Numbered from the stretch's first letter, positions 1-64,000 are shown. The stretch: DNA of 64,000 nt from an uncultured cyanobacterium (GCA_963793265.1 CAWBZI010000007.1:1-64000), one strand, 5' to 3'. A program made the numbers and translations. Notes: generated by a model not told the origin, from the sequence alone.

Positions 1-12
1 AGTATTTTCTCA

Positions 13-1152
13 CTATAATTTTTTTGCTAGCGTGAGGCGCGCATTATTATCGATTAGCTGGGGCTGGCCTGCTGGGCAGGTAGCGTCGTATTGTTGAAAG
101 TAGCTTTGAACATTGGGCGGCAGATCGGGATAGTCGAAAATAGCGTCTCCCGCGGCGACGTTGGCCCAAAAGTCTCGAATGTGCGGCGCGTAGGTTTTGG
201 CCTGCCTGAGGCTGAGTGATAGCGGCGGTTCGGTGAGCAGCTTGAGGATGAAAGGAAAAGAGCGATCGCCCATCCATTCTCTAGAGGTTTCCTGCAACGT
301 CGGCCATTCGGGCACGGCTTCTATACGGCGCGATTGCACCTCTAGCTGATACTGCCCCTGCTTATCAGTAGTCAACGACATCAGCCGATAAGGATGCGGA
401 TAGCTCACCAAAGAACCCGTTGTAATGGCATAAAAATCACCCGCCTGGGCAATATCTTGCACATGCAGGTGCCCTGTAAAGGCAACGGGTACATTCGCCG
501 CCTGTAGCCGCTCTACAAGCTGCGGCGCGTTGCTAATCATGTACCTTTGCCCCAGCTTCGTTCGCGACTGCCCCGGCAAATGCTCCAATACATTGTGGTG
601 CACCATCACCATCACAAACTTTCCAGCTAGCGCCGCGAGCTGTTCGTCTAGCCAGGCAAGCTGCGCGTCGTCAATTAGCCCTGTACCCGTCTGCTCGCCC
701 GCCTCATCAAAGGCGTTGGAATTAAGCCCGATTAAATGGACGCCCGGCAAAATTTCCTGCTGGTAATACAGCTTCTGCCCGTCGGTATAGCCAAACTGTT
801 GATAGATCTGAGGAAACTCGGCCAGCGCAATCCGGTCTTTTGCTTCATTCCCATCTGGCTTGGAACCCCACCGTCTGACGACATCATGATTGCCAGGCAC
901 CACATATGATGGAAAAGGCAGCTCTGATAGTTTCTCGGCCATCCACTGATGGTTTTCGCGTTCGCCGTGCTGCACTAAGTCGCCCGGTAGCAGCAAAAAA
1001 TCGGGCTGGTCGTCAATAAGCTGCGCCAGGATTTGTTCAAAGGCTGGAATGCTCACTTCTACCAGATGAAAGCGAGTGGGCGCATCCCATATGGTATGCG
1101 GCAAGGCTATATGCAAATCGCTGACAACGGCAAACTTAAAATTGAGCTTCAT
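13..1152 (-). CDS. Calcineurin-like metallophosphoesterase (Icc/CpdA-like)
   Basis: Motifs SDLH, GDLV, PGNHD, HH and GHLH in a 379-aa ORF. Confidence 0.88.
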   Translation of the reverse strand: MKLNFKFAVVSDLHIALPHTIWDAPTRFHLVEVSIPAFEQILAQLIDDQPDFLLLPGDLVQHGERENHQWMAEKLSELPFPSYVVPGNHDVVRRWGSKPDGNEAKDRIALAEFPQIYQQFGYTDGQKLYYQQEILPGVHLIGLNSNAFDEAGEQTGTGLIDDAQLAWLDEQLAALAGKFVMVMVHHNVLEHLPGQSRTKLGQRYMISNAPQLVERLQAANVPVAFTGHLHVQDIAQAGDFYAITTGSLVSYPHPYRLMSLTTDKQGQYQLEVQSRRIEAVPEWPTLQETSREWMGDRSFPFILKLLTEPPLSLSLRQAKTYAPHIRDFWANVAAGDAIFDYPDLPPNVQSYFQQYDATCPAGQPQLIDNNARLTLAKKL

Positions 1153-1344
1153 TACAGGGGGGTTAGGATGAGGGCGGCTTAACCGAACTGACGGCTTATA
1201 TTTTGCTATTTTACATTTTTGTGAGTTTTCACGCCCAGATCATAGGCATCTGGTAGTGTTGAACAAACACCACGCAACCACCTCGTAAGGTTCTAAACTT
1301 GCCGTTGATACCGCCGATATTCGTGTAGCAAACGGTTTGTTCTC

Positions 1345-1773
1345 ATGGTTTTATTTTCAAAGGATCGAATATTAGTGCCGATTGACTTTTCTGAGAAGTC
1401 TATAGAGGCGCTGAAGGATACGGTTGACTTTGCTGGAACGACAGGAGGGGTGCACGTTGTACATGTGCTAAAGGAACTTGACGCTGTAGAGCCCGGCGTT
1501 GTTTGGGAAACAGTAAACGATGATAGTCGTCGGATTGCCATTCAGAAGCTATTTGATGAGAAGTTTCCGAGCAGTACCTACGAAGGGCTCAAATTTTCAA
1601 TCCAAAAGGGCGATCCGACTGCCGAAATCATTGACTACGCAGAAAAGCACCAGATTAACCTCATCGTGATGCCTTCTCGGGGGCGAACGGGCATTTCTCG
1701 TTTCTTTATGGGCTCGATTGCAGAAAGGGTCATTCGCTTTGCCCACTGCCCCGTACTGGTGCTCAGGCAGTAA
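1345..1773 (+). CDS. Universal stress protein (UspA family)
   Basis: ILVPIDFS N-terminus; GDPTAEII...LIVMPSRGRTG...GSIAERVIRFAHCPVLV. Confidence 0.93.
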   Translation: MVLFSKDRILVPIDFSEKSIEALKDTVDFAGTTGGVHVVHVLKELDAVEPGVVWETVNDDSRRIAIQKLFDEKFPSSTYEGLKFSIQKGDPTAEIIDYAEKHQINLIVMPSRGRTGISRFFMGSIAERVIRFAHCPVLVLRQ

Positions 1774-1878
1774 AAAATTCGTGTTCCTAAAATAAAATGT
1801 CGCAAATATAGCATAGTCATTGCACTGTGCGTAATGCCTTACGCCCCTACAACAATTTCCGTAGGGGCGTAAGGCATT

Positions 1879-2075
1879 CATTGGTGTCAACTTAAGGCTG
1901 AAATGCTTTCAGTTATAGGTGTTCAGCATACGTGTCGTAGCCCTCATCCTAAATCCTTCTCCCTGGGGGAGAAGGACTTCAGAGTCCGGTTCCCTTCTCC
2001 CCGAGGGAGAAGGGCTAGGGATGAGGGCTGAGTAGCTTACGCCACAAGGGATACATGCTTAAGTTGATAACAATG
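1879..2075. mobile_element. 197-bp MITE with 18-bp TIRs and 8-bp target site duplication
   Basis: TIR CATTGGTGTCAACTTAAG (1879-1896) vs CTTAAGTTGATAACAATG (2058-2075), 16/18 match. AAGGCATT is duplicated at 1871-1878 and 2076-2083. No transposase. Confidence 0.85.
1939..2029. repeat. Structured cyanobacterial dispersed repeat (CCCTCATCC...GGGATGAGGG type) inside the MITE
   Basis: Outer stem AGCCCTCATCC/GGATGAGGGCT encloses two CCTTCTCCC-N-GGGAGAAGG hairpins. Confidence 0.75.
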
Positions 2076-4868: not shown

Positions 4869-5549
4869 CTATCGGTAAAGGCTAGGTCTGCTTTGCTGTC
4901 GGTAGTATTGCTTGAGCCGCTGTTGAAAGCTTCGCCAGTAGTGAAAAAGGTCGTCGGCTTCTAGCATAAATACCTGCGCGGGATGATCTTCTAGGGCGAT
5001 CGCAATCATCCCTCTCTCAATACATATCCCCGTCTCCCGATACACCCAGTTCACCGCGTAGCAATAGGCCGCCACCTGCATACAATAGTCTTCAATCCAC
5101 TCAATCTTCTTCGGCTTACGCGCCGTTTTCCAATCGCACACGCACAGCTCGCCCGCATACCGCATCACCGCATCCGGGTAGCCCCCAAACTTCAGCGGGT
5201 GCCACACCGCCCCTTCCACCAGCAGCACCTCATCAATATCGGCCAGCACTGGCTCAATCGAGTTCCAAAAGCCATCTAACCCTTCAGGCAGCTCGTAAGG
5301 GTCTTCCTTCAGATGAGATTTGATAATTTTATGAATGCGCGTACCAGAGCGAGCGGATGTCGTGGTAATGCGTCTCGCTTCTTCTTTACCAATGCGATCT
5401 TGCCAGTCCCAAAGCCGCTTTTTGTCTTCGTAGGGCTTTGTTGCCGACAAAATAGTGGTAATGCCGGGATAGCAGTGGCCTTCTATTTCATAGTGGCGCT
5501 TGCGGTTAACCGAAACTTGCTTAGCCTTATAGTGAGGCAGCTCAAACAT
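4869..5549 (-). CDS. PD-(D/E)XK exonuclease-like protein
   Basis: PGITTIL, GTRIH, E...GYPD...DWKT and QVAAY motifs of RecB-like nucleases. Confidence 0.82.
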   Translation of the reverse strand: MFELPHYKAKQVSVNRKRHYEIEGHCYPGITTILSATKPYEDKKRLWDWQDRIGKEEARRITTTSARSGTRIHKIIKSHLKEDPYELPEGLDGFWNSIEPVLADIDEVLLVEGAVWHPLKFGGYPDAVMRYAGELCVCDWKTARKPKKIEWIEDYCMQVAAYCYAVNWVYRETGICIERGMIAIALEDHPAQVFMLEADDLFHYWRSFQQRLKQYYRQQSRPSLYR

Positions 5550-5598
5550 TAGCGAGATGATTCCTAGAGTAAGTGACTCTTTAGCGCCGAACGCCTAT

Positions 5599-17925: not shown

Positions 17926-19092
17926 TCAGGGTTTTAAGACGACTTTGATACAGCTATCCTTTTTATCGCGGAACATCTTGTAGGCTTCAGGCGCATCGGC
18001 TAGCGGTAGTCGGTGCGTAATTACAAAAGAAGGATCGATTTCGCCGTTTTGAATGCGTTCTAGCAACGGCTTTAAGTATCGCTGCACGTGGGTTTGGCCC
18101 GACTTCATGGTCAATCCTTTGTTCACAAAAGCGCCCATCGGCATTTTATCGACGAAGCCCCCATATACGCCGGGTACAGAGATTTTGCCACCTTTGCGGC
18201 AGGCTGCGATCGCCTGCCTTAGCACCAGCGCCCGCCCCGTCTCTAGCCGCACCGCCTGCTTCACCGTGTCATACAGTGCCATGGGCCCATTCCCATGCGC
18301 TTCTAGCCCCACTGCATCCATACAGCAGTCAGGCCCCATGCCACCCGTCATCTCTTTGAGTGCCTCACCGACATCAACTTCTTCATAGTTGAGCACTTCA
18401 GCGCCGCTCTTTTCTGCCATTGCTAGACGTTCAGGAATACGGTCAATCGCAATTACCCGCTCAGCGCCCAGCATCAATGCGCTACGAATCGCAAACTGTC
18501 CGACCGGGCCACAGCCCCATATCGCTACCGTTTCGCCGGGCTGAATATCGCAGTTTTCAGCAGCCATGTAGCCGGTTGGGAAAATATCGGTGAGAAAGAG
18601 CACCTGATCGTCGGTGAGTCCTTCAGGGACTTTGATAGGGCCGACATCTGCAAAAGGAACGCGCACGTATTCGGCCTGTCCACCTGCGTAGCCACCGACG
18701 AGGTGAGAGTAGCCGTAGATTCCAGCGGGAGAATGGCCCCATAGCTTTTCGGCCAGGCCCGCGTTGGGGTTTGAGTTATCGCATAGTGACCACAGGTCTT
18801 GGTTGCAAAAGAAGCAGCTACCGCAGGAGATGGTGAAGGGAATGACGACGCGATCGCCCTTTACCAAGTTCTTAACGCCAGATCCAGTTTCAACCACCTC
18901 ACCCATAAACTCGTGGCCCAAAATATCGCCCGACACCATGCTGGGAATGTAGCCATCGTAAAGGTGAAGGTCAGAGCCACAGATGGCCGTGGAGGTGACT
19001 TTGATAATGGCGTCACGTGGATTGAGAATTTTGGGATCGGGGACGGTATCGACGCGGACATCTTCGGCGGCGTGCCAGCAAACTGCTTTCAT
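17926..19092 (-). CDS. Zn-dependent alcohol dehydrogenase (glutathione-dependent formaldehyde dehydrogenase-like)
   Basis: ICGSDLH, GHEFMG, CGSCFFC..C, DIFPTG, GCGPVG. Confidence 0.93.
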
Positions 19093-19982: not shown

Positions 19983-22292
<2,310 letters not shown>

Positions 22293-22714: not shown

Positions 22715-22841
22715 GAAGCAATATTCTTTACTGAGACAGGCTTTCGTAGGCGATCGCTAAAAACTGATCAGCCGTCAAAAAGCCACCACCCAAAGCCTCT
22801 CCATAGTCAGCTAGCGGCTCTGAAGCAACAAATTCCTCTAG

Positions 22842-23003
22842 GGGAGCTGCGCTCAAATAAAGTACCGGCAAACCGACAAATATTGCCCTGGGCATAGCGT
22901 GCTAAGCCCCTACGTCACCGTCAATTTCTGTAGGGGCTTAGCACTGCTATGCCCAGGGCAATGAACAGCGCTATCAGCGGTACTTTATTTAGACGCATGT
23001 CCC
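22842..23003. mobile_element. 162-bp MITE with imperfect 26-bp TIRs, 3-bp TAG duplication, carrying a REP doublet
   Basis: GGGAGCTGCGCTCAAATAAAGTACCG vs the reverse complement of 22978-23003, 21/26 match. TAG at 22839-22841 and 23004-23006. Excision restores the frame GLTL-EEF. Confidence 0.82.
22882..22962. repeat. GTAG-type REP doublet, near-perfect ~32-bp inverted repeat
   Basis: ATTGCCCTGGGCATAGCGTGCTAAGCCCCTAC ... GTAGGGGCTTAGCACTGCTATGCCCAGGGCAAT. Confidence 0.8.
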
Positions 23004-23492
23004 TAGCGTTAAGCCTTCCTCAATAGCCGACTCTGTTCTAAGCCGCACGTTCACCAGCATCGTTCGATAGTCCTCTAGCTCAGCCCGATTAGAGAGCGGG
23101 CCGTGACCTGGAATAATTTGAGTCTCTTCATCAGCTAGCGCTAGTACGGTTTCAACTGCTTCAATCATGCCAACCACAGATAGCAGCATATAGATATTCT
23201 CAGCGACTGGCACCGTTTTAATTTCAACCGCACTAAAGTCCTGCTCTTGCGCAAAGCTAGCTGTGCCTATGCTCAGCGCGCCTAATCCGAGAATACTGGC
23301 TGCAATTCGTTTAATAGGTGTTATTGAGGTTAAATATGTAGCCTTTTAGCTAGTTCGTATGAGGGAACGTACTTAGATGATTGATGCATGTTATGAGCTG
23401 CCTACATCAGACCGTAATATTTCTACACGTCTGTTCCTTTTGGCTGATGCTGCCCCTATCGACTTTTATTAAATTATGCGTGCAGACCTTTT

Positions 23493-23802: not shown

Positions 23803-25533
23803 CTAAAAGACGCCGAATTTGGAGGTTACGATCTTAGCCTTATTGGCCTCTATATAGTCCCAAATGAGGCGACATACTGGGCGTTTTTGCCCTACATTGC
23901 AGTTCTCGTGCAGATCTACGTAGGGTAAGAAGTTGTATTCGTTGAAAGCACCGCCGGTTTCGCTAAGTGGCTTAGAGATATCTGAAACAATCAGATCAAA
24001 GCCTAGCGTTAGGGTAGTGAACTTATAAGAGAAGTCAATACAGCTTTGGATAATGCTGTGGTGGAGCTGGTCGGTACAATCTATATAGTCAGAGCCCGTG
24101 GAGGCTGTAATTTTTTCTTGCAGGTAAACGACTTCTTTAGGCGGTAGCACCGTTTCCAGGCTGTAGCCTGCTTCGGCTAGAAGCCTGCGGCTGGTGTCGT
24201 CAAAAACGAGCTTGTGAATAGTGGTGTGGGCTTCGTAGCGATCGCCCCTCCCGACTTCTTCATTCCTCAGCCGAAACAGCTCTAAAATAGAATGCTGCCC
24301 GTCGCCTGTTACATTAGCGGGCCTACGTTCTACGCAGCCTGCATACTTGTGATCGAGAATAAGCACCCGGTAATCGCGCCCCGAAATGTGAGATTCGAGC
24401 TGAATGGTGCTGCCATTTGCCGCGATGATATCGGCGCACTGCTGTAGCTGATTGGGCGTAGTGAGGTTAGGAAATACGTTTTCGCTGAGGCTGCCGGAGT
24501 CTGGCTTGACGACAAGGGGAAACGGTAGGTTTTGAGGTTGGATTTTTTGCGTGATTTCGGTGAAGCTTGCGAACAGACCGTAGGAAATTGGGACGGCTAA
24601 TCCGCTCGCTTTCATAAGTGAGAGTTTGTACGCTTTGGTTTGTTCGTAGTCGTAGTCTTGATACTGGCGGCGGAAGGAGAAATGACCTGGATAAATTTTG
24701 TAGATAAAGCCTTTGCCGTCGCGCTCTGCTTGAAAGGTTCTGTCTCGAAGGCTGAGTACTTTGAAGCTAAAGCCGCGCTCCATTCCGGCCTGCATCACCG
24801 TCCAAATGCGTTTGGTGAGCTGCCGGTAGTCAATAGTGCTTGCAAGATTAGGATCTATAGTGGATTCTGTGCGGATGGCTTTGGGTGTGATTTGGGTGGC
24901 GGCGGTATCGACGGGGGCGGATTTGGCGATCGCACGAGCTGCCTGCTGCACACTAGCAATGTTGGGCTTTAGCGGATGCTGGTAGAGGGCCTGGGCAATC
25001 GCAATAGAATTTCCTACTAGCAGCCCGGCGGCTGTATTCACAGTGATCGCGTACTCTCCTCTCGCCTCAATAAAACCTGCCTTGGCATCTATCGACCGGC
25101 TCCAGCTCACTGTATTGTTTGGCGGTTGAGTGCAGCCTAAGCGGCTAAAATCTTGACAGGCTTGCGCAATGCAATGGCCGCCGCCTTCGGCATCGCTGGT
25201 TAGCAGTAGCCCAAATACTTTGTTATATAGCTGATGCTCTGTGCGATCGCCTTGCAGTTTCTCAAGCAGTTTGTAATAGATTGAGGGAGATCTGCTGTGA
25301 CGCACTGACAATCCAACAATCAGGATATGAGCCGCTTGAATATGCTGTAGAACCGCAGAGAACCTATAGTCTTTCTTTTGTGATATTTCATAGTCAATGA
25401 CTCGGAGCTGATGCGTTCTATGACCCTGTTGCTGATATTTTTGGGCGACGACAGTCCAGAGCGCTTCAGTATTGCTCACTTCAGGAGAACGCTTCAGCGT
25501 GCAGTTCAAAAATAGGATATTGAGCGCGTTCAT
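23803..25533 (-). CDS. Fusion of a degenerate flavodoxin-like (FMN reductase-type) domain and a cyanophycin-synthetase/GshF-like ATP-grasp domain
   Basis: N-terminus ILFLNCTLKRSPEVSNTEAL; C-terminus PLVVKPDSGS, GRDYRVLI, ERRPANVTGDGQHSI, GFDLI..FNEYN. Confidence 0.8.
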   Translation of the reverse strand: MNALNILFLNCTLKRSPEVSNTEALWTVVAQKYQQQGHRTHQLRVIDYEISQKKDYRFSAVLQHIQAAHILIVGLSVRHSRSPSIYYKLLEKLQGDRTEHQLYNKVFGLLLTSDAEGGGHCIAQACQDFSRLGCTQPPNNTVSWSRSIDAKAGFIEARGEYAITVNTAAGLLVGNSIAIAQALYQHPLKPNIASVQQAARAIAKSAPVDTAATQITPKAIRTESTIDPNLASTIDYRQLTKRIWTVMQAGMERGFSFKVLSLRDRTFQAERDGKGFIYKIYPGHFSFRRQYQDYDYEQTKAYKLSLMKASGLAVPISYGLFASFTEITQKIQPQNLPFPLVVKPDSGSLSENVFPNLTTPNQLQQCADIIAANGSTIQLESHISGRDYRVLILDHKYAGCVERRPANVTGDGQHSILELFRLRNEEVGRGDRYEAHTTIHKLVFDDTSRRLLAEAGYSLETVLPPKEVVYLQEKITASTGSDYIDCTDQLHHSIIQSCIDFSYKFTTLTLGFDLIVSDISKPLSETGGAFNEYNFLPYVDLHENCNVGQKRPVCRLIWDYIEANKAKIVTSKFGVF

Positions 25534-27776: not shown

Positions 27777-28985
27777 CTACGGTCTGCGAAAGCGGTTTGA
27801 GAGCGGGACTGCGCTAACACCGTGCAGGACGATGCTCATTAAAACGGTGAGGACGACGCAGGCAGCAAGCTCGTTAATACCGGGTACTGGAAATTCGTCT
27901 AGCACTAGCAGCGCAAACAATATAGAGGCAAGTCCTCTAGGGCCAAACCAGCCGAGAAACAGCTTGTCGTAGCGGCTGAGATTGAGCCCTTTGAGCGCAA
28001 TCCAAATAGGTATAAGGCGAACAAAGGTGAGAAATAGCACCGCGAGCGTGAACGTTCTCCAACCGATATGCGTGAGCCCAAGCGGGGCTAATACTGCGCC
28101 GAAGATAAAGAAGGTGAGAACGGTGAGAAGCTGGCCTTCGCCTTCCATAAATTCAACAATGAAGGTGGGGGGCGATCGCAACACATTCCCAAACGTCAAC
28201 CCCCCGACAAAAGCAGCGATAAATCCGTTACCACCAATAGCCTCTGCACCAAAATAGATAATAAATGCGGTGGTTAGAAAGTATAGCCCTTGGGCAACTG
28301 TGGTAGCTGAGCGATGGTTAACCGATACATCCAAGAGCCTGGCGGCTACGGTGCCAACAACAATACCGGTGAGCGGGCCTAGCGTGAGCTGTAAGAGTGT
28401 GAACAAAGCCACGTTGTTAGGAATATTTTCATTGCTAATTCCAGCAGCGTTAGTGGCCAGAACAGCGGCAATGAGTACAACCGGTAGCGCTAGTCCATCG
28501 TTTAAACCGCTTTCGACGTTAATGCTTTGGCTAAGCCTTTTAGGCACAGCAGGGCTAGTAACAACGCTTTGACCTAAGGCGGCATCGGTCGGGGTCAAAA
28601 TAGCAGCGACTAAAAGCGCTAAAAACCATGAGCTATCAGGAGAAACCCATTTGGCTATAAAGGTACCTATAACAACGCTCAACGGCATCCCGATTAGCAG
28701 CATACGAGCTGGAATAGCTGCTTCTTTCCTCAGTGCGCTGAGCTTTACCTGCGAGGCATCTGCAAATAAAACCAGGATCAGCGTGGCTTCTGTAATGAGC
28801 TGAATAGAGTCGCGATCGGCGTTTTCAGAGACGAGCCCAAAGCCGAACGGCCCCAGCAGAAGGCCGAGGGCGGTGAAGATCATCGGTAGAGAAATAACGG
28901 AAGCTGCAAGCCGACGAGAGAGCAGGGCGTAGGTGGCCGTGGCTGCAAGCACAATCAAAATGACGGTAGTAGAAGGCATAGGCAA
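27777..28985 (-). CDS. Cation:proton antiporter (CPA1/NhaP-like)
   Basis: ILTPTDAALG, VESGLNDG and WFGPRGLAS. Confidence 0.9.
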   Translation of the reverse strand: MPMPSTTVILIVLAATATYALLSRRLAASVISLPMIFTALGLLLGPFGFGLVSENADRDSIQLITEATLILVLFADASQVKLSALRKEAAIPARMLLIGMPLSVVIGTFIAKWVSPDSSWFLALLVAAILTPTDAALGQSVVTSPAVPKRLSQSINVESGLNDGLALPVVLIAAVLATNAAGISNENIPNNVALFTLLQLTLGPLTGIVVGTVAARLLDVSVNHRSATTVAQGLYFLTTAFIIYFGAEAIGGNGFIAAFVGGLTFGNVLRSPPTFIVEFMEGEGQLLTVLTFFIFGAVLAPLGLTHIGWRTFTLAVLFLTFVRLIPIWIALKGLNLSRYDKLFLGWFGPRGLASILFALLVLDEFPVPGINELAACVVLTVLMSIVLHGVSAVPLSNRFRRP

Positions 28986-29219
28986 AGCGTGAGGCGAATT
29001 GAATTAGATGTCTTCATTTTCTGGCTCAAACGGTACGTCTGTCTTGGAATTGAGTGAGGTTTTTTGCATCATGAGTAACTTCATCTCGTAATCTCAGGAC
29101 AAGCTTATTTTCGTATTCGCGGATACTCATGTGCCGCCTTCACTATAGAAATTGTAGACAAGGCGATCGCCCCTCGAACCAATCGGGCCTACCGCCTTTA
29201 TTTGGAGATATCAAAACTC

Positions 29220-29396
29220 ATGAAACGCTTTTTACTTTCTACGCTTACACTCATGACGACAACAGCACTATTAACAACGACTGTAAGCGCCCGTCAGGTA
29301 GGTCTGAACAATCCGATTGCCGATCTTAATGGAGACGGCAATGTAACCCTTCACGAGGTTGTTACGTTTAATCGCGATCGCAGAGATAAAAACTAA
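29220..29396 (+). CDS. Small secreted protein with one EF-hand-like loop
   Basis: MKRFLLSTLTLM signal peptide; DLNGDGNVTLHE calcium-loop pattern. Confidence 0.65.
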   Translation: MKRFLLSTLTLMTTTALLTTTVSARQVGLNNPIADLNGDGNVTLHEVVTFNRDRRDKN

Positions 29397-29448
29397 GTTA
29401 AGAAATCATCTATGAACAAAAACAACTATTAATTAAGAGAATTTTACG

Positions 29449-30261
29449 ATGAAAACACAGACCTTGGTCAAAGTAGCGCCAAAGCAAAAAACAGACAGTG
29501 ATTTAAGCAGGTGCCTAACGCACAGATCTGTTCATAGTCTGGCTGAAACAATCTCTCTTTTGAGCGCTTCAGAGGCGAATGAAATCATTTCAGCTTGTGG
29601 CGAACTCGGGCCAGATCCAAGCTCAGACCATTTTACAGCGCGAACCAAAAACGTTGCTTACGTGCTGTGTCTCAACGGAGAATGGTTTCAAATTCGCGCC
29701 CGCTGTTTTTCTCAACCCGAACAGTACAACGATTTCTCGGGCGGCTACAAGCGCTGCTATCGCGAAATGCCGCAGCCGTTCTTGACGAGTCCGGCGACTA
29801 AGAAGGTGCTGAATGCCTTTAAAGAAAAGTACAACATTTCTGATAATGAGCCGGTTTTGGTGCAGGTGCAAAAAAGCCACATCACCAACGAAAACTCTGG
29901 CGGGTGCTTAACCGGGCAGGGCATTCATTCTGACGGAGCCGATAGAGCGATGCTAGTATGCTTGGAGCGCGAGCATATTGAAGGGGCCAAGAGCGCTATC
30001 TATGCCGACCTTGAAGGGACGCGATCGCTCATCAGTCCTTTTGTATTAGCAGCCGGTGATGCGATGCTGTGGCACGACAATCAGGTTTTTCATACTGTTG
30101 AACCGGCTAGCGTGGCACCAACAGCTTTAGCAGGCACTCGCACCGTTCTAATTGCACACTATCCGGCAATTCACTATCTTAACGGGACTGTAAACCCCAA
30201 CAATACCCTGGGCACAAACGTGGCTGAGGCGCACAGGCGACTGCGAAACCAGAGCGTCTAG
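29449..30261 (+). CDS. 2OG-Fe(II) dioxygenase family protein
   Basis: QPEQYNDFSGGYKR, GIHSDG (HxD), VFHTV (distal His), GTRTVL (2OG Arg). Confidence 0.82.
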   Translation: MKTQTLVKVAPKQKTDSDLSRCLTHRSVHSLAETISLLSASEANEIISACGELGPDPSSDHFTARTKNVAYVLCLNGEWFQIRARCFSQPEQYNDFSGGYKRCYREMPQPFLTSPATKKVLNAFKEKYNISDNEPVLVQVQKSHITNENSGGCLTGQGIHSDGADRAMLVCLEREHIEGAKSAIYADLEGTRSLISPFVLAAGDAMLWHDNQVFHTVEPASVAPTALAGTRTVLIAHYPAIHYLNGTVNPNNTLGTNVAEAHRRLRNQSV

Positions 30262-56133: not shown

Positions 56134-57351
56134 ATGGAACGATCCTGGTGGCAAAAGCTAAAATCCAATCCGCTAGCACGGTTTGCAGCTGTCGTACTGG
56201 CGACCTTTTATATCGTGGTGATTTTTGCTGACTTCTTTGCGCCATATAGTCCGCTGGCCCAGCAGCCCAACGGCTCACTGCTGCCGCCGACACAAATCTA
56301 CTGGCGCACTGTGGAAACCGGAGATTTTATTGGCCCCCATGTGTATCCAACCATTCAAGGGCCAATCGATTTAGACACTGGGTTACAGGAGCTAGAGGTA
56401 GACTACAGCCGCCCGGCACCGCTGCGTTTGTTTGTTCGTGGCAGCGAATATCGCCTGTTTGAGACAATTTTGCCTGTTATCACCAGCTTTTCGTTTGACG
56501 GCGAAATGACGCTGAGAGAGTTCAAGCTATTCGGTGGTATTCCGATGAACCTGCACCTCTATGGCGTGTCGGTGCTAGATGAGGCAGAAGCAGGCGCTGA
56601 TGAAACCGCCGATGAAACGCTAGAAGCCGTAGAAACCACACCTGCCTATATCAATATTTTAGGTACTGATAACGCGGCGCGTGATGTCTTTAGTAGACTG
56701 GCCCACGGCGGTCGAATTAGCTTGAGCATTGGCCTGATTGGTATCGCGATTTCCTTTCCACTTGGGCTGCTAGTGGGCGGTATCTCTGGCTACTTCGGCG
56801 GCTTTGTTGATTCTGTTCTGATGCGAATTGTTGAAGTGATTATGACGATTCCATCTATTTATCTACTCGTGTCTTTAGGCGTAATTTTGCCGCCTCAGCT
56901 CAGCAGTTCTGAGCGCTTCTTTTTAATCACGCTAATTATCTCGTTTATTGGCTGGGCCGGGCTTGCTCGGGTGATTCGCGGCGAAGTGCTTTCGCTCAAA
57001 GAGCGGACGTTTGTGCAGGCGTCTCAGTCTATGGGGGGGCGATCGCTCCACATTATCCTCCGCCACATCCTGCCGCAAACTGCCACCTACGTCATCATCA
57101 CCGCCACCCTCGCCATCCCAAGCTACATCGTCTCCGAAGCCGTCCTTAGCCTCATCGGCCTCGGCATTCAAGAGCCCGATCCCTCTTGGGGCAACATGCT
57201 CTCAGCCGGTACCAATGCCTCCATTTTGGTGCTAAACCCCTGGCTAGTGTGGCCCCCGGCGGCGCTGATTGTGATGACTGTACTCTCATTCAATTTGTTA
57301 GGCGACGGACTGCGTGATGCTTTAGACCCGCGCAGTTTGCAGGAGCGCTAG
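56134..57351 (+). CDS. Peptide/nickel ABC transporter permease (OppC/DppC)
   Basis: LGTDNAARDVFSRL, GWAGLARVIRGEVL, RHILP, SFNLLGDGLRDALDPR. Confidence 0.93.
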   Translation: MERSWWQKLKSNPLARFAAVVLATFYIVVIFADFFAPYSPLAQQPNGSLLPPTQIYWRTVETGDFIGPHVYPTIQGPIDLDTGLQELEVDYSRPAPLRLFVRGSEYRLFETILPVITSFSFDGEMTLREFKLFGGIPMNLHLYGVSVLDEAEAGADETADETLEAVETTPAYINILGTDNAARDVFSRLAHGGRISLSIGLIGIAISFPLGLLVGGISGYFGGFVDSVLMRIVEVIMTIPSIYLLVSLGVILPPQLSSSERFFLITLIISFIGWAGLARVIRGEVLSLKERTFVQASQSMGGRSLHIILRHILPQTATYVIITATLAIPSYIVSEAVLSLIGLGIQEPDPSWGNMLSAGTNASILVLNPWLVWPPAALIVMTVLSFNLLGDGLRDALDPRSLQER

Positions 57352-59399: not shown

Positions 59400-62327
59400 G
59401 TGCGATCGCCCTCATTGACAGGGCTGCGCGATTACCTCTGCTACTACCTCAAGGGAACTAATCACTTCGGTGTCCGGTCGTTTTCAGTGTCAAACAAGAC
59501 TCAGGCATCTCCCTTGGCACCTACCCTCACTCCCCAAGTTCAAGACTTGCTGTCACGCTCGTTTGCTCAACCTCAGGGCGCGATCCACGGCGCAAAGGCG
59601 CTCAATGCTGAAGGTCTAGGGCTGCATCAGCTTGTAGAGGCTCAAGCAGCGCAAACGCCTGACGCGATCGCCCTGGTTCATGAAAAACAAACGTTTACCT
59701 ACCGGCAAATTAACGAGCGATCTAATCAGCTCGCGCACTATTTAATTAAGCTAGGTGTGCAGACAGAGCAGCTAATTGCGATTAGTTTGGTGCGATCGCC
59801 CGACATGCTCATCGCCTTCCTCGGCATTCTCAAAGCCGGAGCCGCCTATGTTCCAATCGACCCCAACTATCCAGAGGCGCGCCGCCAATACATTCTTACC
59901 GACGCCCAGGTTGAAATTACGCTAACGCATAGCGATTTAGCTGACGCGCTATTCACGGAACGGGGCCAGACCATCTGTTTAGATCGAGCCGCCTCTGTTT
60001 TAGCCCAGCAGCCCAAAAGCAATCCTGATCTCAAAGTCAGCCCAAAACAGCTCGCCTACATCATTTACACATCAGGTTCTACAGGCAATCCTAAAGGCGT
60101 TATGGCCCATCACTTAGGGCTTGTAAACTACAGCCTGGCGCTAGCAGAAGCCTTGGAACTAACCGCCGCCGATCGGATGCTTCAGTTCTCGACAATGAGC
60201 TTCGACTTTATTGTCTCTGAGGTGTATCCAACACTAGCAACTGGCGGTGCTTTGGTGCTGCGCTCAGATGACATGGTGACTTCTACCAAAGCCTTTGTAG
60301 ATTTTGTTGCTGAGAATAAAGTCTCGGTCATTCAGTTCACCACCGCTTTTTGGCATGAGCTGGTGAGCGGCATTGATAGATTAGGCATTTCACTACCGCC
60401 AAGCCTGCGGTTGGTTTTGTTTGGTGGAGAGAAAGCCTCTTTGGCGCTTTGCAGGCAGTGGGTCGAGAAAGTAGGAGACTATCCAAGACTGTTTAACGCT
60501 TACGGCCCAACCGAAGCGACCGTGATTACGACGCTATACGACGCAGTAGCTGAAGGCTATGACGGCAGCCAGGACTTACCGATTGGTCGTGCGATTCGTA
60601 ATGCGCAAACCTACGTTTTAGATGAGAAGTTGAACCCGGTTGGCCCCGATGAATCGGGTGAGCTGTATATCGGCGGGCCGGGCGTTACGAATGGCTATTT
60701 GAACCTGCCAGAGAAGACCGCGAACGTTTTTATCGGGAGTCCCTTTCAGACGGGCGATCGCCTCTATAAAACAGGCGACTTAGTGAAAATGGATGAGAGT
60801 GGCCTAATTGAATTTGTAGGCCGAGCTGACTTTCAGGTAAAGATTCGAGGCTTTCGGATTGAACTCGGTGAGATTGAGAGCTGCTTGGATCGCTATGAGG
60901 CGATAGAGCACCGGATCGTAATTGCGCGTGAGGATACGCCCGGCGATAAGCGACTGGTGGCTTATGTGGTTACTAAGGGCGGGCACACGTTGGATATAAC
61001 AGCGCTAAAAGAGCACCTTAAAGCAGAGCTACCTAGCTTTATGATGCCTGCGGCAATTGTTGTAATGCCGGAGCTGCCAAAGAATGCGAATGGCAAGATT
61101 GATCGGAAGGCGCTGCCTGTGCCGGTTCAGGAGGATGCGCAGCGATCGCTTGTGTCGGCGCGATCGCCCCTAGAAGAAAAACTCGTCACCCTCTGGAAAT
61201 CAGTATTAAACCTTGATACAGTCGGCGTCACCGATGACTTCTTCGACCTTGGCGGCAACTCTCTGCTAGTCATGCGACTGTTCAGCGAGCTAGAGGCTTT
61301 GTTCGATCAGCGCCTGCCCCTAGTGGAGATTTTCGCGGCCCCAACGATTGAGAAAATGGCTGAGCGACTAGAGCAGATAACGGTAGTCGAAACGACTGCT
61401 ACTGATGAAAGCAAAGCAGAAGCTTCCACCTTTTCTCATTGTGATTCGCTGGTGCCGCTAAGAATAGGAACGGTTTATCCACCGCTGTTTTTGGTTCATG
61501 ATGTGGATGGTGATACGGCGCTGTATTTGCATTTAGCCCGGCGGTTGGAGCGCGATCGCACCGTATACGCTATCAGACCTCAGCGGCTCTGGCAGCGAAT
61601 GGACTGTAGCGACGACGCGCCTTTAGCCCATAGCCGCGTTGTTGAATTTGCACAGCACTGTGTAGAACAAATGCGTCTGGTGCAACCAGTCGGCCCTTAT
61701 TTAATAGGCGGCTTATGTGCAGGCGGGGTCATTGCCTTCGAGACAGCCCGCCAGTTAGAAGCGGCTGAAGAGAACGTTGTTTTAACGCTGATGGACGCAC
61801 CTGCACCAAATGCCCAAAAACGAGCTGGACTAATTGCCGATCAGCGCTTAGAAAACTTAGGTAACGTATGGTCTACAAATAAGAACCCGCTGCAAGTTGC
61901 TATTAAAATCTGGCAAAAAGGCACTAACGCCCTTCGCTACGAAATCTCTTCTACTTACAACAAAGTGCAGTCCTGTGCCCGCGCTCACACCTTCCAATGG
62001 TTCCAAGACAAAGCGCTACCCATACCCAGCATCCTACAGAGCCTGTCTGCAAGAAGCCTTATTCTGTTTGCCTACCACACCTACCACATTGAAAAACCCT
62101 TCAAAGGCAAGGTTTTGTTGGTTAGAGCAACAGCAGGCAACGGTACTAAGGAAGACGCGGCCTATGTTTCAGAATACGAAGATTCGATGTTCGGATGGAG
62201 CCCCTATGTACAGCAACCTATCGAGGTGACTGATGTACCGGGCGGCCATTCTACGATGCTCGGCAGCGACAAGGCCCAGTTCATTTCCAAGGCGCTAGAA
62301 ATCTTCATCAAAAAGTCTCTCAGGTGA
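59400..62327 (+). CDS. Stand-alone NRPS-like enzyme, A-PCP-TE; true start may be GTG 59487
   Basis: YTSGSTGNPKG, NAYGPTE, YKTGD, QVKIRGFRIELGEIE, NGKIDR; PCP FFDLGGNSL; TE GPYLIGGLCAGG...VPGGHSTML. Confidence 0.95.
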   Translation: MRSPSLTGLRDYLCYYLKGTNHFGVRSFSVSNKTQASPLAPTLTPQVQDLLSRSFAQPQGAIHGAKALNAEGLGLHQLVEAQAAQTPDAIALVHEKQTFTYRQINERSNQLAHYLIKLGVQTEQLIAISLVRSPDMLIAFLGILKAGAAYVPIDPNYPEARRQYILTDAQVEITLTHSDLADALFTERGQTICLDRAASVLAQQPKSNPDLKVSPKQLAYIIYTSGSTGNPKGVMAHHLGLVNYSLALAEALELTAADRMLQFSTMSFDFIVSEVYPTLATGGALVLRSDDMVTSTKAFVDFVAENKVSVIQFTTAFWHELVSGIDRLGISLPPSLRLVLFGGEKASLALCRQWVEKVGDYPRLFNAYGPTEATVITTLYDAVAEGYDGSQDLPIGRAIRNAQTYVLDEKLNPVGPDESGELYIGGPGVTNGYLNLPEKTANVFIGSPFQTGDRLYKTGDLVKMDESGLIEFVGRADFQVKIRGFRIELGEIESCLDRYEAIEHRIVIAREDTPGDKRLVAYVVTKGGHTLDITALKEHLKAELPSFMMPAAIVVMPELPKNANGKIDRKALPVPVQEDAQRSLVSARSPLEEKLVTLWKSVLNLDTVGVTDDFFDLGGNSLLVMRLFSELEALFDQRLPLVEIFAAPTIEKMAERLEQITVVETTATDESKAEASTFSHCDSLVPLRIGTVYPPLFLVHDVDGDTALYLHLARRLERDRTVYAIRPQRLWQRMDCSDDAPLAHSRVVEFAQHCVEQMRLVQPVGPYLIGGLCAGGVIAFETARQLEAAEENVVLTLMDAPAPNAQKRAGLIADQRLENLGNVWSTNKNPLQVAIKIWQKGTNALRYEISSTYNKVQSCARAHTFQWFQDKALPIPSILQSLSARSLILFAYHTYHIEKPFKGKVLLVRATAGNGTKEDAAYVSEYEDSMFGWSPYVQQPIEVTDVPGGHSTMLGSDKAQFISKALEIFIKKSLR

Positions 62328-62333
62328 ATATCG

Positions 62334-63407
62334 ATGTTCACCAATGAGCACGCATTGTTTAGTTCATACTCTTTCACTTCACCCTTCACCCGCTCTATGA
62401 TTGCCACCACTCAAAACGTATCTTCGCCTAATTACGCCAAACCGCTTATCAACTGGAGTCCTTCAAACTACGCCGCCTTTGGCCGCAAAACGCAGCTTTT
62501 CGATCACGGCTACCACCAGCTTCCGCTATTTGAAAAGGCATCTCTAATCGCCCTGCTCGACAGCTACCCGCGCGCCTGCCTTCAGGCTTTTACAATGGGC
62601 ACTGATAAAACCCAGCGCTCGGACTGGAAAAGCGTTGACATTCACCCTGATAGCAAGGGCGCAGATCTTTGGGCGGCAGTAGAGAAAGGTCGCCTGTGGC
62701 TAAATATTATTTCGCTTGAAAAGCACTCTCAAGCGTATGCCGAGCTAGTCAAAGGTATGTACTCCCATTTAGACGAGTACTGCCCGCACTTAGGAGACTT
62801 GATTGCTAGCTACACCACTATGCTCATTTCTTCGCCGGGCGCGCAGGTGTATTACCACATGGACGAGTCTCCTAACATGCTGTGGCACATCAGCGGCCAA
62901 AAACGCCTGTGGGTGTATCCTGCGATGGACTTACGGTTCGTACCACAAGACTTTTTAGAAGAGATTTATACGGGTGAGATTTCTGAATTCTTGCCCTACG
63001 ACCCTGAATTCGACGCGGCGGCTGAGAGCTTTTTGCTGACGCCTGGCAAGGTGGTTTCCTGGTCTCATAACGCGCCTCATCGGATTGAGAACCTGACGAT
63101 GAATGTGTCGATGACGACTAGCTTTCGGGCACATACTCAACGGCGGCGATCGCTCGTACAGCAGGCCAACCGCTACATCATGCGCAACTTAGGCGTGAAA
63201 AATCGCTCAATGAGAGAAGACGGCTTTAGATCGGCAACAAAGCGCTTTAGCTACAAAGTCATCAATAAGCTCAAGCCATTCAAACCGACTAAGCATCCTC
63301 ACGATGACTATGTGACCAATTTACAGATAGATCCCAGAGAGCCCAACGGCATTCGTATTCTTGATAAGGCTGTTGTTGCTTCTTTTTCTAAGGATCGCAA
63401 GGATTAG
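62334..63407 (+). CDS. JmjC-like/cupin Fe(II)-dependent oxygenase
   Basis: LISSPGAQVYYHMD...GQKRLWVYP...NAPHRIEN (HxD...H); 6 bp after the NRPS. Confidence 0.78.
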   Translation: MFTNEHALFSSYSFTSPFTRSMIATTQNVSSPNYAKPLINWSPSNYAAFGRKTQLFDHGYHQLPLFEKASLIALLDSYPRACLQAFTMGTDKTQRSDWKSVDIHPDSKGADLWAAVEKGRLWLNIISLEKHSQAYAELVKGMYSHLDEYCPHLGDLIASYTTMLISSPGAQVYYHMDESPNMLWHISGQKRLWVYPAMDLRFVPQDFLEEIYTGEISEFLPYDPEFDAAAESFLLTPGKVVSWSHNAPHRIENLTMNVSMTTSFRAHTQRRRSLVQQANRYIMRNLGVKNRSMREDGFRSATKRFSYKVINKLKPFKPTKHPHDDYVTNLQIDPREPNGIRILDKAVVASFSKDRKD

Positions 63408-63466
63408 GAAGGAGGAGCCGAAGGACGTAACCGCTGATAGCAGTGTTCTAGTTGGGCAAGAATTCT

Positions 63467-64000
63467 CTAATCTTCAAGAGTTTTGAGGCGATCGCAATCT
63501 CGATCGCCATTGATCTCTATGCTTTCAGGAAGCTTGGTTTTGCATAAAAAGGGAGGATTGACGCCTATTAACTGTGCCGCTGCTATCTCAGCGCTACCAA
63601 GATCGGCCTCAGCTAAGACTGCTTTATCAAGCTTTGCACCTTTCAAATCAGCGCCCGTCAGGTCGGCTCTCTCTAAGTTAGCGCCTTCTAAGTTAGCGCC
63701 TGAGAGCACAGCACTATCCAAAATCGCATCGCTAAGATCGGTGCACTGTTCAGGTTCACGGTCAGGACGTTCAGGTTTTCTGGGCGCGCAGTGAAGATCG
63801 GCCTTTGTCAAGTTAGCTTCTGTTAAGTCAGCCTTAGGGAGCAAAACGCCTCTCATTTCAGCATTGGTTAAGTCTGCATTGTTCAGCTTTACCTCGCTCA
63901 TCTCAGCCCGCCATAGCTGAACCGATGTCATTTTCGCATAGGTCAAGTCAGCTTTCCAAAGTCCTGCGTCCTGAAGCCGGGCACTCTTTAAATTTGCATA
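63467..64000 (-). CDS. Pentapeptide repeat protein, 5' end outside the window
   Basis: A(D/N)Lxx repeats; the frame stays open to the window edge. Confidence 0.92.
   Translation of the reverse strand, partial: YANLKSARLQDAGLWKADLTYAKMTSVQLWRAEMSEVKLNNADLTNAEMRGVLLPKADLTEANLTKADLHCAPRKPERPDREPEQCTDLSDAILDSAVLSGANLEGANLERADLTGADLKGAKLDKAVLAEADLGSAEIAAAQLIGVNPPFLCKTKLPESIEINGDRDCDRLKTLED

Follow-up and report, generated by a model that had tools for sequence, protein, structure and literature searches.

Most copies of the palindromic octamer HIP1 (GCGATCGC) mark a switch in strand composition, from G-rich on its 5' side to C-rich on its 3' side, throughout the genome of an uncultured cyanobacterium. 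The observation comes from a 64,000-nt stretch of that genome (the window) and is confirmed in the window and genome-wide. The window contains 91 HIP1 sites (1.97 are expected, and 100 shuffles gave at most 7), and the left-minus-right GC skew is positive at 77 of them (85%) when 30-bp flanks are scored and at 76 when the flanks are 60 bp long, compared with 48-49% of 5,000 random window positions. Keto (G+T) skew is greater on the left than on the right at 71 of the 91 sites with flanks of either length. The genome has 6,888 HIP1 sites at a density of ~1.2 per kb (1.16-1.35 across seven contigs), corresponding to a spacing of ~0.8 kb; 5,849 of the 6,884 sites that could be scored with 60-bp flanks (85.0%) are G-richer on the left, the figure for 20,000 random genome positions being 49.3%.

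Averaged over 6,841 HIP1 sites, and relative to a background of about -0.004, (G-C)/N is +0.218 to the left and -0.219 to the right at 1-3 bp from the motif, +0.085 and -0.093 at 19-30 bp, and +0.062 and -0.068 at 31-60 bp. It is still +0.027 and -0.033 at 91-120 bp, in keeping with the extent of tens to hundreds of bases given in the initial annotation of this DNA, and at third codon positions it is traceable for more than 1 kb where the next HIP1 site is far off. The initial annotation had described a flip from G/T-rich to C/A-rich sequence, citing eight positions. All eight are HIP1 sites at which the G+T-C-A skew of the left 60 bp exceeds that of the right 60 bp (Table 1). Most of the effect lies in the G/C part of that description; the T/A component is of the right sign but weaker, with antisymmetric (T-A)/N of 0.02-0.03 over all positions and (T-A)/(T+A) of 0.12-0.14 at third positions within 60 bp.

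Table 1. HIP1 sites of the window cited individually, with the skew of their flanks (left / right)
Feature	Coordinates	Strand	Composition
Whole window	1..64000	.	91 HIP1 (GCGATCGC); G tends to exceed C on the 5' side and C to exceed G on the 3' side; sawtooth between neighbours
HIP1 57039-57046 with 60-bp flanks	56979..57106	.	GC skew +0.20 / -0.66; keto +0.20 / -0.43
HIP1 28172-28179 with 60-bp flanks	28112..28239	.	GC skew +0.24 / -0.53
HIP1 21007-21014 with 60-bp flanks	20947..21074	.	GC skew +0.47 / -0.35; keto over 200 bp +0.23 / -0.21
HIP1 24238-24245 with 60-bp flanks	24178..24305	.	GC skew +0.33 / -0.35
HIP1 4996-5003 with 60-bp flanks	4936..5063	.	GC skew +0.07 / -0.61
HIP1 18850-18857 with 60-bp flanks	18790..18917	.	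GC skew +0.29 / -0.52; keto 0.00 / -0.30
HIP1 59792-59799 with 60-bp flanks	59732..59859	.	GC skew +0.15 / -0.35
HIP1 61160-61167 with 60-bp flanks	61100..61227	.	GC skew +0.24 / -0.12; second HIP1 18 bp upstream, at 61142

The skew is a property of the complete octamer. Of 178 palindromes of 4, 6 or 8 bp that occur 40 times or more, HIP1 scores z = 78 and the runner-up z = 2.8; none of the other 177 has the skew. CGATCG outside HIP1, GATC outside CGATCG, GCTAGC, GCGCGC, GGCC, CCGG and CGCG are flat, as are other GCnnnnGC palindromes, and variants that keep CGATCG but lack the first or the last base of HIP1 have no skew. GTGATCGC (n=285) and GCGATCAC (n=339), the words that m5C deamination of HIP1 should yield, keep about ±.06; in this they are like fossil HIP1 sites.

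Within genes the skew is greatest where the amino acid sequence is least affected. At four-fold degenerate sites 11-30 bp from HIP1, the frequency of G is.424 upstream and.168 downstream, that of C.166 and.431, that of A.170 and.189, and that of T.240 and.212 (the purine share 5' of HIP1 is thereby.594, up from ~.48). Antisymmetric GC skew over the same interval is.260 at four-fold sites,.213 at third,.051 at first and.024 at second codon positions, and it is alike for the three frames of HIP1 (.242-.273). Occurrence of the flip in genes on both strands had been taken as an argument against codon or transcription bias. That argument is void, because HIP1 is palindromic and its antisymmetric profile cannot but be identical whichever strand a gene is on. 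An analysis oriented by the sense strand takes its place: the skew is +.258 upstream and -.263 downstream, a near-perfect antisymmetry of the kind that is expected of a DNA-level, strand-symmetric process, and the antisymmetry of four-fold sites with signed distance from HIP1 holds for any gene strand. Two-fold sites shift likewise, G/(A+G) falling from.642 upstream to.380 downstream and C/(C+T) rising from.274 to.586. By arithmetic, a single parameter fits all site classes, the strand of the 5' flank favouring G and disfavouring C by a factor of ~e^0.45; resolution of G-containing mispairs against one fixed strand should give just such a pattern. The shift of ln(G/C) is uniform, at 0.79-0.98 in all seven neighbouring-base contexts, with no CpG-type or TpC-type signature among the seven.

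Third-position GC content is the same on both sides of HIP1 (.54-.56). The antisymmetric GC skew at third positions is.506 at 4-15 bp,.404 at 16-30 bp and.323 at 31-60 bp. Intergenic DNA is also skewed, at.216,.145 and.101 over the same intervals; constraint, faster turnover and genes missed by our own gene calls may all contribute to these lower values, which are only partly accounted for.

The two HIP1 sites that flank a position compete for its skew. At 121-200 bp from the left site, the skew is 0.00 when the right site is equally near, -.11 if the right site lies at 301-450 bp, and -.23 if it lies beyond 2 kb. A ratio model (chi2 90.7, 77 df) is superior to additive log-odds (chi2 139.1, 78 df), and remains so in seven of seven leave-one-contig-out fits. 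The profile is concave away from each site and has fallen to half by ~140 bp.

The skew also follows the gain and loss of HIP1 in individual lineages, and is stronger at older, shared sites. This is seen at 600 aligned HIP1 sites for which orthologous positions were compared between this genome and five relatives. Shared sites (n=265) have a skew of +.385±.011 here and +.289±.011 in the relative; sites present only here (n=183) have +.285 here and +.046 in the relative, and sites present only in the relative (n=152) have +.199 there and +.049 here. Where the ortholog differs at three or more of the eight bases, the skew in the species without HIP1 is approximately zero (+.015±.017 and +.027±.018). 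The strand-polar footprint anchored at HIP1 that the initial annotation envisaged is supported: it is largest at synonymous sites, needs the full octamer, and tracks HIP1 gain and loss. All six genomes sampled from the genus have the skew, which is strongest there, and a weaker skew of the same sign is found in 10 of 18 other families. On the other hand, HIP1-dense genomes of other families that lack the skew exist (G020, +.015±.014; G023, -.026±.016), implying that HIP1 alone is insufficient and that an extra factor is required.

Substitution rate was assessed at non-synonymous positions against the five relatives (synonymous sites are saturated and uninformative). Around the 265 shared HIP1 sites, codon positions 1+2 have diverged by 13.1% at 4-15 bp, 12.5% at 16-30 bp and 11.4% at 31-60 bp, and by ~12% further away; the ratio of near to far is 1.04-1.09 at shared sites and 1.18-1.36 where only one of the two species has the HIP1. 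No rise of substitution rate near shared sites is detected at codon positions 1+2 in this comparison with five relatives. A flat rate means that the partition between strands changes and that the total does not.

The explanation that we favour, with slightly less than even confidence, is that a strand-polar excision and resynthesis of the mismatch-correction type enters at HIP1 and runs 5'->3' outward. One strand would be opened at HIP1 and excised 5'->3' away from it, the + strand being discarded to the right and the - strand to the left. A mismatch between two HIP1 sites could be handled from either one, and the nearer site would win more often. G-containing mispairs (G.T, G.A and G.G) would form, or be recognised, more readily than their C-containing counterparts, in line with what is known of polymerase errors and of MutS. 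With the same strand always discarded, that strand would lose G and gain C and, over evolutionary time, G would come to exceed C 5' of each HIP1 and C to exceed G 3' of it, mainly at silent positions. Mismatches might arise as replication errors, or in heteroduplex between genome copies or with incoming DNA. Strict nascent-strand repair predicts, by fit-based arithmetic, ~35% fewer substitutions beside HIP1 than midway between sites, which is not seen (13.1% beside HIP1, ~12% further away); the flat rate is somewhat better matched by correction of heteroduplex, as a polar form of biased gene conversion, or by events that are simply partitioned, than by nascent-strand repair. Also counting against the favoured explanation are the lower skew between genes, the HIP1-dense genomes that lack it, and the failure to find a nickase in the searches described below. 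Anchoring at HIP1, polarity, the footprint at synonymous sites, rivalry between neighbours and dependence on HIP1 in each lineage are observed; strand nicking, excision in the 5'->3' direction, a part for MutS and MutL, and the dominance of G mispairs are inferred. The mutation types are likewise deduced, from base composition (with its three degrees of freedom) and from unpolarised substitutions. The geometry agrees with the outward 5'->3' process suggested in the initial annotation, but the direction itself rests on the assumed dominance of G-containing mispairs or lesions.

Several repair genes of this genome speak for such excision. A MutL_C match (C4:331509-331874) lies within a 585-aa ORF, and the C-terminal part of this MutL carries EQHIAHERVLYE, which resembles the endonuclease motif of MutH-less bacteria. 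There are two MutS genes (two MutS_V matches), RecJ, and exonuclease VII. The last of these can degrade from 3' ends too, so that gene content does not force excision to be 5'->3' only. Neither MutH (PF02976; the E. coli control was detected, and an unrelated nickase is possible) nor Vsr (PF03852) has a match in the genome, which is 98.97% complete. Seven C5-methyltransferase loci are present; three nuclease candidates adjoining C5-methyltransferase genes were rejected on account of a phyletic pattern unlike that of the skew. PF02976, PF03852 and these three candidates thus yield no HIP1-specific nuclease or nickase.

It is unlikely that the skew is instead a scar of damage, HIP1 being nicked or broken repeatedly and resected 5'->3', and the exposed 3'-ended strand becoming G/T-rich through C>T and A>G changes and possibly C>G changes through abasic sites. 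The geometry of such a process is right: the strand that runs 5'->3' towards HIP1 is rich in G and poor in C, and on the strand of the 5' flank G exceeds C and T exceeds A, the same excess that is found on bacterial leading strands and usually ascribed to single-strand exposure. Passages of a study of human meiotic break hotspots describe this geometry, with C>N and A>N changes that include C>G (PMC7615360), and HIP1 is reported in a preprint to stimulate recombination in the manner of Chi in a model cyanobacterium (10.1101/2024.09.10.611283). The composition and the rate argue otherwise. Four-fold sites record a swap of G for C in which A and T hardly change, and the accompanying gain of purines is beyond what C>T and A>G could produce by themselves; the neighbouring-base signature is absent. 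Acting as an added source, resection would need to raise local mutation twofold or more for a skew of 0.5, and its fit calls for an input that exceeds background 5.5-fold at 9 bp and 2.6-fold at 23 bp, far from the ratio observed at shared sites. Inclusion of C>G, as in those passages on human hotspots, would fit the composition and would not fit the flat rate, and the searches above found no HIP1-specific nuclease. The cause put forward in the initial annotation, C>T and A>G damage of exposed strands, fails on the G-for-C swap, the missing context signature and the flat rate.

Selection, with G-rich 5' and C-rich 3' flanks favoured because something reads them, is distinctly unlikely. The reader could be an outward-tracking protein loaded at HIP1, RecA on G/T-rich tails, the machinery of uptake or processing in transformation, or fold-back of the DNA itself. 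A fixation bias is compatible with the flat rate, the encoded amino acids change too (more E, V and G upstream, more T, I, P and Q downstream), and HIP1 is, in parts of two texts, reported to boost natural transformation and proposed to serve as an uptake sequence (10.1101/2024.09.10.611283, PMC13756078). The two flanks do not pair with each other: mirror complementarity is.254, compared with.256 for flanks of different sites, complementarity is avoided at ±1 (.193 vs.266), and the folding energies of native (-10.07) and chimeric (-10.19) flank pairs are equal. An extended palindrome, cruciform or hairpin is rejected on the same complementarity and energies. The flanks have no enriched motif and no excess of G-runs; selection would have to act on hundreds of silent sites per HIP1, each, by our reasoning, of vanishingly small weight; and additive log-odds, the form expected of independent per-site selection, is the worse of the two fits (139 vs 91).

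A replication-linked origin, with HIP1 as a site of lagging-strand priming, a junction or a local start that creates kb-scale leading/lagging asymmetry, is very improbable, even though HIP1 spacing is similar to the size of bacterial Okazaki fragments, the sawtooth and the competition between neighbours resemble origin/terminus logic, and the contigs have no clear chromosome-scale skew (skews by contig decile are irregular). The sign is wrong: fragments primed at HIP1 would leave the template exposed longest just 3' of HIP1, from which we derive G-richness there, since the more exposed template should be G/T-rich, yet the sequence 3' of HIP1 is C-rich. The concave profile is neither a linear gradient nor a step, and skew-less HIP1-dense genomes exist. 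That HIP1 merely arises or survives at junctions of G-rich and C-rich sequence, or that codon usage and protein context create the pattern, is scarcely tenable. In its favour, positions -1 to -3 are enriched in G and positions +1 to +3 in C, and HIP1 extensions are known in some genomes (from passages of PMC4390886), but the skew is absent at HIP1-less orthologous positions and at possible precursors keeping CGATCG, is higher at shared, older sites than at lineage-specific ones (.385 vs.285), is independent of HIP1 frame and gene strand, and is present between genes.

Polar excision from HIP1 can be stated in a fuller form, which is correspondingly more tentative: in members of the genus, and to a lesser degree in many cyanobacteria outside it, HIP1 may be where a mismatch-excision system that works only 5'->3' is loaded or makes its nick. 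The system would correct heteroduplex between the many genome copies or with incoming DNA, and perhaps replication errors, the flanking HIP1 that is used deciding which strand survives. If so, the kilobase spacing of HIP1 would be the working range of the excision system, and the synonymous sawtooth would be a record of its tract lengths (half by ~140 bp, with a tail beyond 1 kb). HIP1 would acquire a concrete molecular function after 30 years, and biased gene conversion a new, polar form. A literature search found no description of strand-skewed flanks at HIP1.

Among known systems, Vsr-type very-short-patch repair has patches of a few to some tens of nucleotides, whereas the HIP1 footprint reaches hundreds of bases in a genome with no PF03852 match. 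DNA uptake sequences are over-represented short words whose presence makes DNA preferred for uptake; HIP1 matches them in density (~1 copy per kb), its uptake role being a proposal (PMC13756078). As set out in its section 3.4 and related passages, the hypothesis of Elhai (Life 2015, PMC4390886) makes HIP1, at ~1 site per kb, the strand signal of a methyl-directed mismatch repair with MutS and MutL; directed by G-m5C and patterned on Dam/MutH/GATC of E. coli, it was built to explain HIP1 abundance. The genome analysed here agrees with that model in having about one palindrome per kb and in possessing MutS and MutL. Section 3.4 and the passages of that paper found by term search contain no prediction or report of flank skew. 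One-sided HIP1 variants, which would keep one G-m5C, have no skew, a further difference. Repair of the Dam/MutH type has the MutH nickase, for which no PF02976 match is found here. Mismatch repair in E. coli is bidirectional, working from either side of the mismatch; the footprint at HIP1 is strictly antisymmetric, and this requires one excision polarity.

Human meiotic hotspots, in the passages of Hinch et al. 2023 (PMC7615360) that concern us, have a mirror-image strand asymmetry over 1-2 kb, the strand that ends 3' at the site being depleted of C and A, and HIP1 is like them in both respects. Those passages describe asymmetry among de novo and rare variants, together with a mutation rate that is strongly elevated; what is seen at HIP1 is an equilibrium composition at 6,888 bacterial 8-bp palindromes with no detectable rise in rate. 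Replication skew, too, is an excess of G over C and of T over A in a single strand that reverses at a point, and it is largest at synonymous sites. HIP1 differs from it in having thousands of switches in place of two, a scale of 0.1-1 kb without chromosome-scale skew, and a third-position amplitude of up to 0.5 in (G-C)/(G+C), far above that of the usual replication skews. With GC-biased gene conversion HIP1 shares the features of a repair bias acting on heteroduplex mismatches, namely neutral shifts in composition at a rate that is not raised. Classical biased conversion favours G:C regardless of strand and raises GC content; at HIP1 GC content is unchanged, and the bias is one between strands, its polarity set by the nearest HIP1.

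HIP1, the highly iterated palindrome GCGATCGC, is the centre of an antisymmetric compositional skew in this genome (5.68 Mb in 7 contigs, 50.7% GC), with G exceeding C on its left (5') side and C exceeding G on its right. The window, the opening 64 kb of contig C7, holds 91 copies, where ~2 are expected, and the genome 6,888, or 1.2 per kb. The left flank is G-richer than the right at 77 of the 91 window sites (30-bp flanks; 49% at random positions) and at 5,849 of 6,884 sites genome-wide (85%, 60-bp flanks) vs 49.3% of 20,000 random positions. The polarity flip reported in the initial annotation is therefore real, and all eight of the sites cited there show it as described. (What had been called a G/T to C/A flip is mainly a G/C effect: the sign of the T/A component was given correctly, but this component is three to four times weaker.) Averaged over 6,841 sites, (G-C)/N to the left and right of HIP1 is +.218/-.219 at 1-3 bp, and with distance it shrinks to +.085/-.093 (19-30 bp), +.062/-.068 (31-60 bp) and finally +.027/-.033 (91-120 bp). 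The skew is specific to the whole octamer: the control words are flat (CGATCG and GATC where they are not part of HIP1, plus eight other palindromes), and among 178 palindromic 4-, 6- and 8-mers HIP1 alone stands out (z = 78; next highest 2.8). Separately, the 10-bp extended palindrome is avoided genome-wide (complementarity of positions -1 and +1 is.193 vs.266 expected), GGCGATCGCC having 565 copies, while ~2,300 HIP1 sites carry G at -1 and ~2,300 carry C at +1.

That the flip is seen in genes on both strands had been taken to argue against codon or transcription bias. It proves nothing, because HIP1 is palindromic and an antisymmetric profile looks the same when it is reverse-complemented. 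In place of this argument, all 6,314 genic sites were oriented by gene sense. (Genes were called from long ORFs scored by codon usage, giving 4,629 genes that cover 85.8% of the genome; the calls are crude, and all codon-position figures depend on them.) So oriented, the G excess upstream (+.258) equals the C excess downstream (-.263), which is what a DNA-level, strand-symmetric process predicts and what an mRNA- or translation-level effect would have no reason to produce. At 11-30 bp, the antisymmetric GC skew reaches.260 at four-fold sites and.213 at third codon positions, as against.051 at first and.024 at second positions, and is alike in all three HIP1 reading frames (.242-.273). Four-fold sites carry the signal well past 10 bp, with values of.194,.118,.045 and.019 at 31-60, 61-120, 121-300 and 301-600 bp, as the initial annotation expected. 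Intergenic DNA is also skewed, at.216,.145 and.101 (4-15, 16-30 and 31-60 bp) vs.506,.404 and.323 for third positions; this 2.3- to 3-fold difference is only partly explained.

The change in composition is essentially an exchange of G for C. Four-fold sites 11-30 bp upstream of HIP1 are A.170, C.166, G.424, T.240 and those at the same distance downstream A.189, C.431, G.168, T.212, as against about A.19, C.29, G.29, T.235 far from HIP1; A and T are nearly constant, and upstream purines rise to.594. Two-fold sites have G/(A+G) of.642 upstream vs.380 downstream and C/(C+T) of.274 vs.586. Arithmetically, a single parameter reproduces all site classes: on the strand 5' of HIP1, a bias of roughly e^0.45 for G and against C. 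The shift in ln G/C is uniform across the seven neighbouring-base contexts tested (0.79-0.98) and across all eight four-fold codon families. Amino acid usage follows weakly: upstream flanks are richer in E, V and G, downstream flanks in T, I, P and Q.

Comparison with relatives points to an order of events in which HIP1 precedes and the skew follows. Samples from five species of the same genus, 1 Mb in all, were aligned to this genome (~450 kb aligned, 73-75% identity), and the comparison used the third positions that lie 4-90 bp from 600 aligned sites. Where HIP1 is present in both species (n=265), the skew is +.385±.011 here and +.289±.011 in the relative; where it is present only here (n=183), the values are +.285 and +.046, and where only the relative has it (n=152), +.199 in the relative and +.049 here. 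Orthologs that differ from HIP1 at 3 or more of its 8 bases have zero skew (+.015±.017 and +.027±.018). Judged from these alignments, older, shared sites carry more skew than lineage-specific ones. The commonest one-base variants in this genome, GTGATCGC (n=285) and GCGATCAC (n=339), would be the expected deamination products of methylated C in HIP1, and they retain a skew of about ±.06, as recently dead HIP1 sites would; variants that keep CGATCG and lack the outer G or C have none in this genome.

A survey across cyanobacteria (third-position skew pooled over 4-120 bp, samples of 20-400 kb) finds the skew in 6 of 6 genomes of this genus, at +.16 to +.30 (z at least 11). Among 18 HIP1-bearing genomes from 18 other families it ranges from -.03 to +.17: ten are positive (z at least 3), three lie at z = 2-3 and five are flat. 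Two of the HIP1-dense genomes are flat, G020 (225 sites in 100 kb) at +.015±.014 and G023 (199 sites in 96 kb) at -.026±.016, and G021, a member of the same class sampled at loci L029-L033, uses GGGATCCC as its iterated palindrome (1.6 per kb; 3 HIP1 copies in 100 kb) with no flank skew (-.023±.015). For the GGCC control, G041 (+.209±.088, z 2.4) is the only one of the 23 sampled genomes to deviate from zero by more than ~2 standard errors. HIP1 is thus necessary and not sufficient for the skew; since some HIP1-dense genomes lack it, a further factor that varies among lineages sets its amplitude.

Neighbouring HIP1 sites compete for the positions that lie between them. This emerges when third-position skew is tabulated by dL and dR, the distances to the left-hand and the right-hand HIP1. 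With dL at 121-200 bp, it is 0.00 when dR is 121-200 bp, -.11 when dR is 301-450 bp and -.23 when dR exceeds 2 kb; at dL = 701-1100 bp with dR >2 kb, it is still -.09. The table excludes a sum of two local effects. A ratio of distance weights fits its 91 cells (chi2 90.7 on 77 df; asymptotic skew.625) better than additive log-odds (139.1 on 78 df) or additive skew (207.8) and is the best model in 7 of 7 leave-one-contig-out fits. The distance weight is halved by ~140 bp and has a tail past 1 kb.

The skew fits alone cannot distinguish three mathematically degenerate readings: an added polar source of mutation, error correction that is polar, and nothing more than a partition of events between the two sites ("exposure plus background" and "differential correction" give the identical chi2 of 90.7). 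The three differ in the total rate that they predict, and so only the rate profile discriminates between them. Four-fold sites are saturated between this genome and its closest species representatives (73-75% identical), with identity of.35-.42 at all distances, and codon positions 1+2 were accordingly used. The substitution rate near HIP1 so measured is flat. Around shared HIP1 sites, divergence is 13.1% at 4-15 bp, 12.5% at 16-30 bp and 11.4% at 31-60 bp, then ~12% to >400 bp; where only one species has the site, the same bins give 17.0%, 14.8% and 13.4%, and those further out 12-14%. Because ascertainment favours conservation at shared sites and change at lineage-specific ones, the truth lies between the two series. 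(Repeats offer too little material for polarising substitutions: a 165-bp repeat has only ~19 copies, and only 9,685 bases of the genome have at least 2 repeat partners.)

These rate data are closest to a partition, in which the total is constant and the HIP1 used sets which strand loses. The flat rate favours correction of heteroduplexes, formed either among the copies of the genome or with DNA from outside, which would amount to biased gene conversion with a polarity. A blind partition is compatible with it too, and classical post-replicative repair fits less well than either. In the proposed mechanism, HIP1 would be the place where a strand is opened, and excision of this strand would proceed 5'->3' away from the site, the opposite strand being kept. 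The mispairs mostly formed or recognised would be those containing G, as is the case for polymerase errors and MutS. A G.T mispair would then be resolved to A:T if the discarded strand carries the G and to C:G if it carries the T, G.G would become C:G, and G.A would become T:A or C:G. With these outcomes the discarded strand would lose G and gain C with A/T about balanced, which matches the four-fold and two-fold composition. Genes for MutL, two MutS proteins, RecJ and exonuclease VII are present, and MutL carries what we take to be an endonuclease-like motif; MutH, Vsr and the exonuclease I C-terminal domain have no match in this genome. This gene content is compatible with the mechanism and not diagnostic of it.

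Strict repair of the nascent strand predicts ~35% fewer changes next to HIP1, and the codon 1+2 divergence does not contain this deficit. The initial annotation envisaged a nick or break at HIP1, 5'->3' resection outward and damage (C>T, A>G) to the exposed single strand. Its geometry is supported; its chemistry is not, given the G-for-C swap, the lack of a context signature and the lack of a rise in rate. An added mutagenic source would, in the fit, amount to 5.5 times background at 9 bp (a skew of 0.5 requires at least a doubled input), and the divergence next to HIP1 has no such rise. An Okazaki-priming model is rejected, as the skew derived from it has the wrong sign. Of explanations from local sequence, G-quadruplexes or poly-G tracts are excluded by long G-runs that are rarer than column shuffling predicts, a hidden longer motif by the diffuseness of the enrichment, and hairpins or cruciforms by flank complementarity of.254 vs.256 with shuffled partners and by equal folding energies of native and chimeric flank pairs.

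Three genes were considered as nuclease candidates. The HNH protein is not found in G013 and G015, comparison genomes that both have the skew; the 261-aa ORF is found in 5 of 18 genus members, G007, G013 and G015 not among them; and the 265-aa ORF is found in this genome only. All three adjoin C5-methyltransferase genes, and their distribution does not match that of the skew, so that none explains it. These and other features are collected in the table. The 5.68 Mb contain only 9 copies of GGCGCC and 6 of CCCGGG, a strong avoidance. Contigs of four metagenome runs come from essentially the same strain, with few differences (judged from 40 of the 391).

Features of the window and of other loci, with the reading suggested by sequence (C1-C7, contigs of this genome, the window being in C7)
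Feature	Location	Observation	Reading
Repeat, ~165 bp	window 22840-23006	~19 genome copies, 90-99% identity; partly matches own opposite strand (77-84%); depth in metagenome contigs ~7-10 times flanks	looks like a small inverted-repeat mobile element
Cluster of differences	window 29205-29510	~15 base differences in 300 bp in two runs' contigs, otherwise near-exact matches; left edge 35 bp right of HIP1 at 29163 (single anecdote)	looks like an imported recombination tract
C5-methyltransferase and small gene	C1:1596699-1598462	small gene an HNH nuclease (C1:1597689-1598462)	probably a restriction-modification pair
C5-methyltransferase and small gene	C6:499993-502338	265-aa ORF (C6:499993-500790), no Pfam match	probably a restriction-modification pair
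C5-methyltransferase and small gene	C6:510790-512710	261-aa ORF (C6:510790-511575), no Pfam match	probably a restriction-modification pair
C5-methyltransferase and small gene	C5:207-1929	ORF, no Pfam match	probably a restriction-modification pair
Second recJ-like gene	C6:55603-57079	two pieces, in-frame TGA between	may be broken
SmaI-like restriction gene and C5-methyltransferase gene	C1:810031-812443	decayed; restriction gene in two ORFs, methyltransferase gene with two stops	resembles what is left of a restriction-modification system for CCCGGG
Start of single contig of comparison genome G068 (L132)	G068:C1:1-20000	no HIP1 site; 8,832 in the genome	perhaps an island free of HIP1, or foreign DNA

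Codon usage and amino acid composition are shifted within tens of bases of ~6,900 sites, which makes the footprint a substantial influence on sequence evolution in cyanobacteria, one that models have so far left out and that can mislead analyses of codon bias or selection. It is quantitatively strong and apparently undescribed: a search by terms of three HIP1 papers (NAR 2018, Life 2015, GBE 2026) finds no description of a flank skew, and none appears among the best matches in the main texts of the open literature on HIP1, GCGATCGC, skew and strand asymmetry, those for GCGATCGC being judged by title or abstract. HIP1 was first described about three decades ago (PMC13756078), and its function is still debated. 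It is proposed, on other grounds, as a strand signal for mismatch repair (Elhai; PMC4390886), and it is connected with chromosome structure (PMC5861425) and with DNA uptake or a Chi-like role (10.1101/2024.09.10.611283; PMC13756078). The footprint makes this long-open question directly testable. It reveals an activity at HIP1 that has a fixed strand polarity, extends over hundreds of bases and involves competition between neighbouring sites; polarity, range and competition together constrain every one of the proposals for HIP1 function, from mismatch-repair signal to Chi-like site.
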